NCBI GenBank assembly: GCA_031416075.1
Contig: JANOSY010000017.1
Span: forward strand, 135,388 to 199,387
Reading direction: 5' to 3'
Origin: Candidatus Tenderia sp.
GTDB taxonomy: Bacteria > Pseudomonadota > Gammaproteobacteria > Tenderiales > Tenderiaceae
DNA: 64,000 nucleotides
A program made the position numbers and the translations under genes. This document shows positions 488 through 6,253 of the stretch, one piece after another (position 1 is the stretch's first letter; the number at the start of each line of letters is the position of its first letter). Under the pieces are notes generated by a model, which made no database searches, was not told the DNA's origin, and worked only from the letters and a program-made list of their open reading frames with translations.

Positions 488-790
<303 letters not shown>

Positions 791-800
791 GGAGTGCGCC

Positions 801-1106
801 ATGATCCCCGGAGAGATAATTACCCAGTCAGGCGAGATCGAACTCAACGCCGGACGGCAGACAATCGAGATCGACGTTTCAAACAGTGGTGACCGCCCGA
901 TTCAAGTTGGATCGCACTACCACTTTGCCGAGACCAACGACGCACTCAGTTTTGATCGCCAGCAGGCACACGGCTACCGCCTCGACATCGCCGCCGGAAC
1001 CGCCATCCGTTTTGAACCGGGCATGACCCGCCGCGTGCAACTGGTCGCGCTCGCGGGCGAACGCAAGGTATTTGGTTTTCAGGGACGGGTGATGGGGCCG
1101 CTTTGA
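801..1106 (+). CDS. ureB: Urease beta subunit
   Basis: MIPGE...[15 protein letters not shown]...[15 protein letters not shown]; ATG at 801 after GAGGAG. Confidence 0.98.
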
Positions 1107-1755: not shown

Positions 1756-3459
<1,704 letters not shown>

Positions 3460-3470
3460 TGTTGCCGCTG

Positions 3471-3920
3471 ATGTTACAGATCACAGAACGTTTAACCTCT
3501 GGCGAGCAGCATGACGACCGACTGATACTGCCGTTTGACCGACGCCAGAAGAGCCGCTTGCGGGTTACGCTGGAGTCTGGCACCGAGGCCGGGCTGTTCC
3601 TGGCGCGTGGCACCCTGTTACGCGGCGGTGACCGGTTGCGCGGCGACGACGGCCGCATCGTGCTGATCGTAGCCGCAGACGAACCTGTGATGCGTATCAC
3701 TGCCACAACCACACACCAGCTGATGTGTGCTACCTACCACCTCGGCAATCGCCATGTCCCGCTCCAGATTGGCGAGGGGTGGCTGATACTCGAACAGGAC
3801 CACGTCCTGCAAGAGATGTTGTTAGGGCTAGGTGTGACGGTCACCTATCAAAACGCGCCTTTTGAACCCGAGGCAGGTGCCTATGGCGGCGGACATCGTC
3901 ATCATCAGGATGGCGATTAA
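3471..3920 (+). CDS. ureE: Urease accessory protein UreE
   Basis: RQKSRLR, YHLGNRHVPLQI, PFEPEAGAYGGGHRHH; start could also be 3459. Confidence 0.97.
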   Translation: MLQITERLTSGEQHDDRLILPFDRRQKSRLRVTLESGTEAGLFLARGTLLRGGDRLRGDDGRIVLIVAADEPVMRITATTTHQLMCATYHLGNRHVPLQIGEGWLILEQDHVLQEMLLGLGVTVTYQNAPFEPEAGAYGGGHRHHQDGD

Positions 3921-3955
3921 AAATCCGCACCCAAAGCACCATGTGGAGCAGGTTT

Positions 3956-4050
3956 TTCGTGGCGAAATTGTCGAACCATAGACGGAGGACGATTAACGTC
4001 ACCAGCCCTTCGACAGGCTCAGGGCGAGCGGAGGATTTATTCAGAGGTTC
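3956..4050. repeat. Degenerate REP doublet with one MITE terminus
   Basis: TTCGTGGCGAAATTGTCGAACCATAGACGG (3956-3985) faces GCCCTTCGACAGGCTCAGGGCGAGCGG (4005-4031); GGATTTATTCAGAGGTTC (4033-4050) resembles the terminal repeat of the 384-453 element. Confidence 0.6.
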
Positions 4051-4063
4051 GTTAAAAATTATT

Positions 4064-4246
4064 TATGCGGCTGTCATCATGATCAAAGGACAGCTAAAGA
4101 TCGAGCCGTGCGGTTGCCATCTTCATGATCAAGGAACGATTAAAAATCCAATCGTGCAGTGGCCATCGTTGTTATCAGGAGACGGACAAAAATCATCATC
4201 AAGAGAATGTTAAAAGCTGTCATTATCAGAAGGCACCCAATAATCC
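4064..4246 (+). repeat. Degenerate tandem array (about 5 copies) of the ureE 3' end
   Basis: GCGGTTGCCATCTTCATGATCAAGGAACGATTAAAAATCC (4110-4149) aligns to GCGGCGGACATCGTCATCATCAGGATGGCGATTAAAAATCC (3886-3926); further copies start near 4064, 4156, 4193 and 4219. Confidence 0.75.
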
Positions 4247-4277
4247 GTTCGTCCTGAGCCTGTCGAAGGATGAACGG
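4245..4277. repeat. REP-like palindrome, left flank of GIY-YIG gene
   Basis: CCGTTCGTCCTGAGCCTGTCGAAGGATGAACGG; inverted copy at 4574-4606 (31/33 identical). Confidence 0.85.
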
Positions 4278-4300
4278 ATTAACTAAAAAGGATAAACAAA

Positions 4301-4666
4301 ATGTTTTGGGTCTACATTCTCCGCTGTGCCGACGGCAGCTATTACACAGGGCACACCGACAATCTTGAAAGACGAATGGGACAATACCTGGCCGGAGAGT
4401 GTGAGGGCTATGTCTCAACACGTCGTCCAGTGGAACTTGCCTGGTCGCAGGAGTGTGTCACCAGAGAAGAGGCCTTAACCGCTGAGATGCAGATCAAAGG
4501 ATGGAGCCGTAAGAAAAAAGAGGCCATGATGCGCAGCGACTGGACGGAAGTTTCTCATTTAGCAAAAAGTAAATCGTCCATCCTTCGACAGGCTCAGGAC
4601 GAACGGCCTGCCTCACGTAGTGCTTTGGGTACGGATTTAACTCTGCTGCGGAGTAATAAAAGTTGA
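4301..4666 (+). CDS. Small GIY-YIG nuclease (YhbQ/UPF0213-like); C-terminus extended by read-through into the REP
   Basis: FWVYILRCADGSYYTGHTDNLERR...EALTAEMQIKGWSRKKKEA; the tail ILRQAQDER is translated REP sequence. Confidence 0.9.
   Translation: MFWVYILRCADGSYYTGHTDNLERRMGQYLAGECEGYVSTRRPVELAWSQECVTREEALTAEMQIKGWSRKKKEAMMRSDWTEVSHLAKSKSSILRQAQDERPASRSALGTDLTLLRSNKS
4574..4606. repeat. REP-like palindrome, right flank of GIY-YIG gene
   Basis: TCGTCCATCCTTCGACAGGCTCAGGACGAACGG is the reverse complement of 4245-4277 with 2 mismatches. Confidence 0.85.
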
Positions 4667-4733
4667 TTAGCCACTATTTTCATATTGCATCTCAATGCAG
4701 ATGCCCTGCATCCACAATTACGGTCGCACCATC

Positions 4734-5435
4734 ATGATTGATTCACTCGCACTCGCCCGACTGTTACAACTGGCCAGCCCGATGTTGCCGGTGGGCGCCT
4801 ACAGCTACTCCCAAGGTTTGGAGTGGGCCATTGAAGAGGGCACGGTGTACGACGCCGCCACTGCCGAGCAGTGGATCGGTGATGTGCTCGAATTTTCACT
4901 CGGCAGCTTTGAACTGCCGTTGCTGTGGCGCATGTGTCACGCCTGGCAGTTGCAGGATCAACAACAGATCAACCACTGGAACGATTTTTTCTGTGCCGGA
5001 CGCGAGACCGCCGAGTCCCATGCCGAAACATTGCAGATGGGTTATTCACTGCGGCGGCTGCTCAATTCACTAGAGTCGTTGGAATCCATTGGTGAAGGGC
5101 AAACATCACCACTGCAACAGCTGCAAGAGATCTCGCCAATCAGCTTCCCCACCGCCTACGCCTGCGCCGTGGCCAGTTGGAAAATCCCGATTGACGCAGC
5201 GCTGCAAGCCTACGCCTGGTCGTGGCTCGAAAATCAGATCAGCGCCGCTATAAAAACTATTCCGCTGGGGCAAACCGATGGTCAGCGCACCCTATTTGCA
5301 TTGGCAGGACGCCTGCCGCAATTGATAACACACGCCTGCATACTTGAAGACGATGAGATCAGCAACTTCGCTCCCGGCCTCACCTTTGCCGGATGCCGCC
5401 ACGAGACTCAATACAGCCGTCTATTTAGATCATAG
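4734..5435 (+). CDS. ureF: Urease accessory protein UreF
   Basis: LLQLASPMLPVGAYSYSQGLE...PLGQTDGQ...HETQYSRLFRS. Confidence 0.98.
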   Translation: MIDSLALARLLQLASPMLPVGAYSYSQGLEWAIEEGTVYDAATAEQWIGDVLEFSLGSFELPLLWRMCHAWQLQDQQQINHWNDFFCAGRETAESHAETLQMGYSLRRLLNSLESLESIGEGQTSPLQQLQEISPISFPTAYACAVASWKIPIDAALQAYAWSWLENQISAAIKTIPLGQTDGQRTLFALAGRLPQLITHACILEDDEISNFAPGLTFAGCRHETQYSRLFRS

Positions 5436-5534: not shown

Positions 5535-5638
5535 AAGCGTGCGAAGCACTCCAGCTATTTTTTAGCCGTGCTTTATCAAGGCAGAAAGATAAAGATGTTG
5601 AATAGTTAAAAACTGTTTTATTAAAGGAAAATACAGTG

Positions 5639-6253
5639 ATGAGAAGAGAGACCCTACGCATCGGCATCGGTGGTCCGGTTGGTTCCGGCAAAACCGCACT
5701 GACACTTGCGCTCTGCCAGCAGCTGCGCCAGCGCTACAACATCGCCGTAGTCACCAACGACATCTATACCAAAGAGGATGCTGAATTCCTCACACGTAAC
5801 GAGGCGTTGGCGCCAGAACGCATCATCGGCGTTGAGACCGGCGGCTGCCCACACACCGCCATTCGTGAAGATGCCTCCATGAATCTGGAGGCGGTGGATC
5901 AACTCTGTCGTCGCTTTGAAGGGTTGGAGATCGTCTTCATCGAGAGTGGTGGCGACAACCTGGCCGCCACCTTCAGCCCCGAACTCTCCGATCTGACTAT
6001 TTATGTAATCGACGTCTCGGCAGGCGAAAAGATTCCACGCAAGGGCGGCCCCGGAATCACCAAGTCAGACCTGCTGGTGATTAATAAAATTGATCTGGCC
6101 CCCTACGTTGGCGCTTCACTCGAGGTGATGGATCGCGACGCCAAACGCATGCGCGGCGAACGGCCATTCTTTTTCAGCAACCTTAAAACCGGCCAGGGGT
6201 TGGATGAGATTATTAAGTTCATTGAAGCCGAAGGGCTGATGGTAGCTCGATAG
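5639..6253 (+). CDS. ureG: Urease accessory GTPase UreG
   Basis: [10 protein letters not shown]-loop, ETGGCPH, ESGGDNL, INKIDL. Confidence 0.99.

Follow-up and report, generated by a model that had tools for sequence, protein, structure and literature searches.

The ureE-ureF spacer

We analyzed a 64,000-nucleotide (nt) stretch of the Candidatus Tenderia sp. assembly GCA_031416075.1 (contig JANOSY010000017.1, positions 135,388 to 199,387 of the forward strand), hereafter the window, whose urease operon lies on the plus strand according to an open reading frame (ORF) list and Pfam matches. The stop of ureE, which encodes a nickel chaperone, is separated from the start of ureF by approximately 800 nt, which hold an array of short repeat units and the gene for a GIY-YIG nuclease of 121 amino acids (aa) (Table 1). 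The array consists of five head-to-tail relics (U1 to U5) of the ureE 3' end, the live copy of which is designated U0. The nuclease gene belongs to a cassette bordered by two hairpin-forming repetitive extragenic palindromic (REP) units, REP(-) and REP(+), and a miniature inverted-repeat transposable element (MITE)-like derivative of the same cassette family lies between U0 and U1. Comparison with relatives indicates that a cassette entered the operon where the ureE stop and the ureF start overlapped. The array is probably nonfunctional debris: copies of the junction at which the ureE end meets the left end of the cassette, amplified locally and since decayed.

Table 1. Features of the ureE-ureF spacer and of the surrounding urease operon. 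For U1 to U5, identities and local alignment scores were measured against the orthologous ureE end of the sister genome G003, with the outcome of 300 shuffles for each unit.
Feature	Position in the window	Strand	Basis
U0, live unit: ureE tail, stop TAA at 3918-3920, then AAATCC	3875-3926	+	alignment
U1, relic, 43 nt	4060-4102	+	29/41 identical; score 11, 237/300
U2, best-preserved relic, 47 nt	4103-4149	+	36/42 identical; score 43, z 17, 0/300
U3, relic, 45 nt	4150-4194	+	32/43 identical; score 33, z 11, 0/300
U4, truncated relic, 23 nt	4195-4217	+	16/21 identical; score 13, 31/300; placed by register
U5, truncated relic abutting REP(-)	4218-4246	+	20/29 identical; score 17, 2/300
T', relic of the original ureE end, SHHHD and stop in the old ureE frame, overlapping the ureF ATG at 4734	4724-4741	+	alignment to G001
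MITE-like derivative of the cassette family	3927-4055	+	at least 19 other genome copies at E of 2e-8 or less
REP(-) hairpin, 15-bp stem, 11-nt loop	4241-4281	+	DNA fold -13.1 kcal/mol, z -5.5, 0/200 shuffles
GIY-YIG nuclease gene, 121 aa	4301-4666	+	PF01541, E 3.4e-19, residues 1-73
REP(+), partner of REP(-)	4582-4606	+	inverted repeat I2
Cassette right arm: 25-nt insert mirroring the MITE inner left part, decayed right terminal inverted repeat	4607-4689	+	by-eye comparison
ureA	488-790	+	ORF, Pfam
ureB	783-1106	+	ORF, Pfam
ureC	1756-3459	+	ORF, Pfam
ureE, 154 aa, C terminus GGGHRHHQDGD and stop	3456-3920	+	ORF; Pfam UreE_N and UreE_C; 87-88% identity to same-genus UreE
ureF, PF01730	4734-5435	+	ORF, Pfam
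ureG	5636-6253	+	ORF, Pfam

Support for an array of ureE-end relics

The initial annotation, made from the letters of the window, had described about five decayed copies of the ureE end between two REP units and next to a GIY-YIG cassette, and the strings and coordinates that it gave are present in the window. The flanking units are the REP(+) of the MITE-like derivative and the REP(-) of the cassette, and the nuclease gene follows. When the ureE end (3874-3926) was searched against 4048-4246, ranked nonoverlapping local hits scored 36, 23, 19, 17, 16, and 15. None of 1,000 dinucleotide shuffles matched any of the six ranks, and random 199-nt segments of the same genome (n = 3,000) reached ranks 1 to 6 in 0, 0, 0, 1, 0, and 0 cases, respectively. 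The rank-5 hit, TTAAAAAT at 4052-4059, is the right end of the MITE-like derivative and not a unit. The self dot plot that had been proposed for 3850-4300 contained 55 windows with at least 11 of 14 positions identical, as against 5.6 ± 4.3 (maximum, 26) in 300 shuffles, none of which equalled it; its main offsets were 46, 223/224, and 270. The 13-mer CGATTAAAAATCC, shared exactly by U0 and U2, occurs in the 3.49-Mb genome at 3914-3926 and 4137-4149 only.

Low-complexity CAT repeats had been named as a possible source of the similarity. With the CAT run at 3894-3906 masked, the right (3') half of the unit, AGGATGGCGATTAAAAATCC, was still significant (summed score, 0/2000), and the left (5') half alone was not (rank 1 reached in 1492/2000). 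Tandem Repeats Finder (TRF) with default settings reported no repeat in 3700-4800. Relaxed settings gave a period of 46 (2.7 copies, 67% matches, score 130) at 4069-4194 and a period of 24 at 4170-4233, so that head-to-tail copies with similarity above chance were found by both relaxed TRF and the dot-plot offset of 46. Together, these results confirm the array of ureE-end relics.

Only U2 and U3 are strong individually. For U2 and U0, which had initially been estimated to match in about 33 of 42 columns, the aligned count is 35/42. The link of U1 to the series is its similarity to U2 (29/40 identical, offset 46), U5 is weak alone, and U4 and U5 were assigned by register and position. U2 and U3 also match the native tail of G001, a genome of the same genus in which the site is empty, with scores of 24 (1/300) and 23 (0/300), and GTGGCCATCGT is common to U3, G001, and G003. 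Judging from these similarities to the ureE ends of two relatives, the array is derived from the ureE end, as the initial annotation had held. BLAST of the units across the genome returned no match elsewhere.

Insertion of the cassette at the ureE-ureF overlap

UreE was found in 15 of the 41 genomes searched, including that of the window (G000). Within the genus (G001 to G004), it was found in G001 and in the sister genome G003 (locus L022), and there was no match in G002 (84% complete) or G004 (95% complete). In G001, ureE ends in GGCCATCGTCACCATCACGATGATTGA, and its stop overlaps the ureF ATG (CATCGTCACCATCACGATGATTGA). In G003, the cassette is present, with its hairpin-flanked GIY-YIG gene and one unit only, as against six units in G000 when U0 is counted. 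The G003 ureE has no stop of its own and reads through GCGATTAAAAATCC into REP(-), giving a protein that ends in GGGHRHHQEAIKNPFVLSLSKDERIGKKES; the terminus HRHHQEAIKNPFVLSLSKDERIGKKES of this protein corresponds to CHYQKAPNNPFVLSLSKDERIN, which is encoded by U5 and REP(-) of G000 in their own frame. UreE of G003 gains 19 residues in this way (EAIKNPFVLSLSKDERIGKKES): the short sequence ahead of the hairpin supplies six, and the hairpin together with what follows it supplies 13. Locus L041 has the same arrangement and may not be independent of G003.

The U5/REP(-) joint of G000 sits where the live ureE end of G003 sits, and the junction AATAATCC/GTTCGTCC matches AAAAATCC/GTTCGTCC of G003. On the far side of the insert, T' matches the G001 end TCGTCACCATCACGATGATTGA with a local score of 24 (0/1000 shuffles), and this relic, TCGCACCATCATGATTGA, is kept just before ureF in both G000 and G003. 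The whole insert is flanked by an 11- to 12-nt direct repeat, TCG(T)CACCATCA, present in U and in T'. An upstream extension of T' to GCAG.TGCC, which would have given it a unit-like left boundary, was rejected (score 8, reached by 1000/1000 shuffles).

A 184-nt contig of run X8 joins position 3902 to position 4727 with 10 differences over approximately 180 nt and is the empty-site allele of a relative. In run X3, unknown letters separate the two sides of a joint from 3898 to 4755, which we left out of account. Six metagenomic loci (L121 to L126) encode UreE relatives of 68 to 80% identity that have an extension of approximately 20 to 25 aa after HRHHHDD and no insert. The extension, for example, EPAPLIRPPQRAKARLEKAQHD, ends in a stop that overlaps the ureF ATG or lies a few bases before it; the genus of the window has lost a UreE extension of this type.

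The cassette family and its mobility

The MITE-like derivative directly follows U0. It consists of an inner left part, a decayed REP(-) (approximately 3953-3984), an intact REP(+) (4007-4031), and a right terminal inverted repeat (TIR), TTATTCAGAGGTTCGTTA, and it is without the outer left TIR. Its family (loci L002 to L020 of G000) is approximately 170 nt long, with the consensus TIR CTAAGGAACCTCTGAATAA and long and short variants. The family resembles an internally deleted cassette in which REP(-) and REP(+) are kept and the gene is absent.

In the cassette itself, the core of REP(-) lies at 4245-4269, and inverted repeat I2 (4245-4281/4570-4606, 92% complementary) brackets the gene. The array occupies the loop between the REP(+) of the MITE-like derivative and the REP(-) of the cassette (I3; fold). 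A 64-nt inverted repeat, I1 (3921-3984/4575-4638), is 73% complementary; it joins the sequence after the ureE stop to the 3' end of the cassette, and 3921-4638 looks like one composite element with long TIRs. The description of the right arm comes from a visual comparison with GGATTTAC..TCACATAGAGCC, the canonical right arms of L042 to L050. Alignments with relatives of the GIY-YIG protein cover only residues 1 to approximately 93, and the last approximately 28 residues (SILRQAQDERPASRSALGTDLTLLRSNKS; window 4567-4666) are encoded by REP(+) and its flank. The protein matched no NCBIfam family, and its best Protein Data Bank matches, 1zg2 (7.9e-13) and 1ywl (7.2e-11), are named UPF0213. G000 contains one full cassette copy and one 36%-identical paralogue.

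A survey for cassettes yielded 368 stretches that matched the pattern, of which 115 encode GIY-YIG relatives; 80 loci were kept (L041 to L120), with protein identities of 62 to 93%. By their record titles, they belong to Methylococcales, Nitrosomonadales, Gallionellaceae, Desulfurivibrionaceae, and others. The canonical cassette, seen in the 20 loci listed, has the ends GGCTCTATGTGA...TCACATAGAGCC around a left arm, REP(-), the gene, REP(+), and a right arm. At four Nitrotoga-like loci (L044, L046, L048, and L050), the cassette lies between apparent hypD and hypE genes, and a flank repeat of approximately 8 nt, AATGA(A/G)TA, was seen by eye at Nitrotoga-like loci. At the level of sequence comparison, the empty site, the occupied site, the MITE derivatives, and the near-identical copies across bacterial classes provide direct evidence that the hairpin-flanked GIY-YIG cassette is mobile.

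The repeats also resemble REP elements, bacterial interspersed mosaic elements (BIMEs), and MITEs. The palindrome of approximately 25 nt is hairpin forming and of REP type, with 43 copies in the genome at up to 5 mismatches; the MITE of approximately 170 nt has TIRs and approximately 20 copies; and REP units occur in tandem arrays in relatives. REP elements are linked to the Y1 (RAYT) transposase, whereas the associated gene here encodes a GIY-YIG nuclease, and the array is made of host gene sequence and not of REP units. The REP-Y1 link is mentioned in the discussion of a paper on the Ssn nucleases (Chenal et al. 2025, PMC11893778). Our literature search found no paper joining GIY-YIG with repetitive extragenic palindromic repeats, and the Ssn paper was the single relevant match for SsnA together with GIY-YIG.

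Composition of the units and order of events

Cassettes of other taxa have CAGCTAAAAATCC/GTTCGTCC at the border with REP(-) (L042; near variants in L045 and L049). The string TAAAAATCC precedes REP(-) exactly in L042 and L045 and with one mismatch in L049. It also ends U0 and U2, and a decayed form of it ends U1, U3, U4, and U5. A unit thus appears to comprise approximately 36 nt of ureE tail and approximately 9 to 10 nt (TAAAAATCC) of the cassette left end, that is, a gene/element junction. Because the units carry cassette-end sequence, the copying would postdate the insertion and would not be a classical target-site duplication. Decayed REP(+), MITE ends, and the canonical left arm of the cassette were rejected as sources of the units, with scores of 22 or less that mostly fell in the shuffle range; a few of them (20 to 22) beat nearly all shuffles, mainly because of TTAAAAATCC or its complement. 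By eye, ATGATCAAGGAA..TAAAAATCC does resemble the left-arm ends of L042 and L044.

U1 and U2 share CATGATCAA where U0, U3, G001, and G003 have CA(C/T)CATCA or TGTTATCA, and U1 to U3 share TGCGG/TGCAG where the live ends have TATGGCGG. These shared derived characters imply that the ancestor of U1 to U3 was a copy already different from the live end. Read as a genealogy, they show at least two rounds of duplication, the later ones internal to the array, which agrees with the successive events assumed in the initial annotation.

The following order of events emerges. Comparison with G001 and G003 shows that the ancestral ureE stop overlapped the ureF start and that the cassette entered this overlap, leaving TCG(T)CACCATCA on both sides and letting ureE read through TAAAAATCC into REP(-), as it does in G003. 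In the G000 lineage, the junction unit of approximately 47 nt was then duplicated head to tail in at least two rounds, the later from a diverged relic. U0 is identical to the G003 end at 44/47 positions and carries a 1-nt insertion that brings TAA into frame; this insertion gives the short tail HRHHQDGD, which is close to HRHHHDD of G001. U0 now abuts the MITE derivative, and U1 to U5 lie between its REP(+) and the REP(-) of the cassette, decaying through substitutions, frameshifts, and truncations. For the duplication itself, we infer replication slippage, unequal exchange, or break repair at the hairpin-forming REP border, with further unequal exchange within the array and then neutral decay. 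An Ssn-like nuclease may have contributed.

The insertion history is well supported, and the mechanism of duplication is not. Tandem arrays of 40- to 52-nt units lie near REP(-) in L048, L050, L066, and L073 and near REP(+) in L046, which suggests that tandem amplification readily arises locally at the hairpin borders of the family. In L050, three 40-nt copies are identical, which points to a recent amplification. In our reading, the array is a minisatellite that has decayed within a hot spot of rearrangement. Like minisatellites and variable-number tandem repeats, it has head-to-tail units (43 to 47 nt) and signs of several rounds of duplication. It differs from them in that its units are old and diverged (69 to 86% identical to the source) and two are truncated. 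Its copy number differs between the relatives G003 and G000, and the contigs of four runs, which cannot show rare variants, contain no copy-number variation.

Several points weigh against reading the array as amplified junction debris. U1 and U4 are not significant alone. The arrays in other taxa all consist of REP-containing units and none of host gene sequence, so they are a loose parallel. The string TAAAAATCC could derive from the native ATGATTGA region instead of the cassette. The order of the MITE and REP(-) differs between G000 and G003, and no single simple path connects them; extra deletions or recombinations at GAACGGATT/ATTAACTAA and at TAAAAATCC would be needed, in a scheme sketched by eye. 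Finally, past translation of the array is possible.

Coding capacity and stability of the array

The ureE stop precedes the array, and no single frame runs from ureE through the units, whose His codons lie in three different frames (U1, U2, and U3 to U5). Every unit is free of stops in its own His frame. As a sign of past coding, this was set aside as uninformative, since neutral decay yields the same in 22% of simulations (P = 0.22). A 274-nt contig of run X4 covers 3998-4271 with one difference, and a 151-nt contig of run X8 covers 4056-4206 with none; the array is stable in these contigs, which come from two studies other than the likely source study. Runs X2 and X3 have no cover over 4102-4209, a hole that proves nothing. 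The contigs of the four runs contained no length variant or recombinant ureE tail of the kind for which a read check had been proposed, and such contigs cannot reveal rare variants.

The suggestion that the array is a reservoir of alternative Ni-binding tails is not borne out, given the three frames, the truncation of U4 and U5, the absence of another copy in the genome, and the absence of recombinants in the contigs. The array is most likely inert. Among the matches listed in our literature search, none was relevant to tandem duplication of the His-rich C terminus of UreE.

Alternative explanations

The explanation that fares best after amplified debris is that the units are former coding repeats: the junction unit was duplicated in frame, giving a UreE with several metal-binding modules of the GGGHRHHQ type that was later truncated by the U0 frameshift, the MITE, or both. 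The G003 unit from GTGCC to AAATC measures 48 nt, or 16 codons, so its duplication would stay in frame. All units are open in the His frame, U3, U4, U5, and REP(-) form one ORF (4125-4286) that ends like UreE of G003, and relatives such as L027 and L121 to L126 have long or His-rich UreE tails. The open frames carry little weight in light of the neutral simulations, however, and the present lengths of 43, 47, and 45 nt are what place U1, U2, and U3 in three frames. In addition, the derived change shared by U1 to U3 is absent from the live end, which points to copying from a diverged copy, and no relative with a multimodule tail occurs among the 16 genome loci and 8 metagenome loci listed. We consider such a coding past unlikely.

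A second explanation would make the cassette the editor of its own borders, with the GIY-YIG protein binding its REP hairpin in single-stranded DNA (ssDNA) and nicking just 5' of it, and with out-of-register repair of repeated breaks at the REP(-) boundary duplicating the flank of approximately 45 nt. It draws on the Ssn system, in which small single-domain GIY-YIG nucleases are encoded by genes flanked by hairpin repeats (NTS-ssnA-NTS) that are also scattered through the genome, an architecture that the authors call insertion sequence-like (Chenal et al. 2025, PMC11893778). Ssn cuts ssDNA within the variable flank, immediately upstream of the hairpin, and leaves double-stranded DNA and RNA uncut; mobility of the Ssn cassette is raised as a hypothesis only (section 12), the word "duplication" does not occur in the main text, and no flank duplications are reported there (PMC11893778). 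The protein described here is likewise a single-domain GIY-YIG protein (PF01541 at residues 1-73 of 121), its gene is flanked 5' and 3' by hairpin-forming inverted repeats, and the array lies in the flank just upstream of the hairpin, where Ssn cuts. The U0/MITE, U2/U3, and U5/REP(-) joints all fall after ATCC, at the 5' base of a hairpin or of an element end, which would be in keeping with breakage at these points. The repeats nevertheless miss the published SRM motif, HGTCWYN(0-2)YYVSBRHN(0-5)WNVSBRGN(0-2)RNCYNB (PMC11893778, section 17), which is absent from both strands of 3801-4800 and has 19 matches in the 3.49-Mb genome, and the solved structures closest to the protein are those named UPF0213. 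The cassette looks like an Ssn-type element by its architecture, and we do not assign it as a member of the Ssn clade (cd10448). The later duplications, moreover, copied internal diverged units and not the boundary unit. The genome has 84 loose tandem arrays and 43 REPs, and no array other than the present one lies within 150 nt of a REP; a genome-wide search for gene-end arrays beside REPs found none besides this one. Border editing by the nuclease is accordingly a speculative reading, to which we give only a small chance.

The initial annotation had also offered an insertion record. Read strictly, this would make every unit the trace of its own cycle of element insertion, in which a long target duplication was made and the element was then excised or collapsed. 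An insertion did precede the copies, the insert is flanked by the direct repeat of the ureE tail in U and T', and two element copies, the MITE and the cassette, interrupt the series. Nothing shows one insertion per unit. The units carry element-end sequence, are contiguous, and have no element remnants among U1 to U5, and the derived characters of U1 to U3 mark them as copies of one another, which points to duplication inside the array. A host-only flanking repeat, as expected of a target-site duplication, is seen between U and T' and not in the array; canonical cassette copies have flank repeats of approximately 8 nt or none obvious by eye, and MITE copies elsewhere are without long duplications. 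Integrated mobile elements leave partial copies of gene 3' ends (attL/attR type, e.g., at tRNA genes), and here, too, the element sits in a gene 3' end, the gene has had its end replaced, and a partial copy, T', has been displaced to the far side. In contrast to such elements, the flanking repeat is only 11 to 12 nt long, no integrase is present, and the five extra copies are contiguous on one side and include element sequence. One insertion for each unit is thus very improbable. Chance resemblance arising from CAT and His-codon low complexity, which the masked left half and the weakness of U1 and U4 alone would fit, can be dismissed in view of the shuffles (0/1000), the genome segments (0 to 1 of 3,000), the masked right half (0/2000), the 13-mer at two sites only, and the dot plot (0/300).

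Setting in the urease operon

A GNAT acetyltransferase gene (1144-1653) lies between ureB and ureC, within the urease operon. An alternative in-frame ATG for ureF occurs at 4695, within insert-derived sequence (the 4695-4736 region); by eye, a Shine-Dalgarno sequence is not obvious at either ATG (4695 or 4734). A scan of 3700-4900 found no terminator, and the same interval contained 3 promoter-like sites, as against 1.0 ± 0.9 expected. No Rfam family matched 3300-5200 at an E value of 1 or less.

Implications for the urease operon and the cassette family

The mobility of the cassette and the remodelling of the UreE C terminus make a better story than the array. The locus gives a datable series of events in which a cassette invaded an operon at a stop/start overlap and remodelled the C terminus of a nickel chaperone. 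In the relative G003, UreE ends in 19 junk residues, and in G000, a frameshift trims the tail back. If hairpin-flanked GIY-YIG cassettes did edit their own borders, which we regard as doubtful, they would rewrite, extend, or regenerate the host gene ends beside them and leave fossil arrays in their wake. Such a mutational mechanism is not described for the GIY-YIG cassette family and would provide the first in-genome signature of its cut site, and the array would mark a site of in vivo cutting by an enzyme family that is being developed as ssDNA tools.

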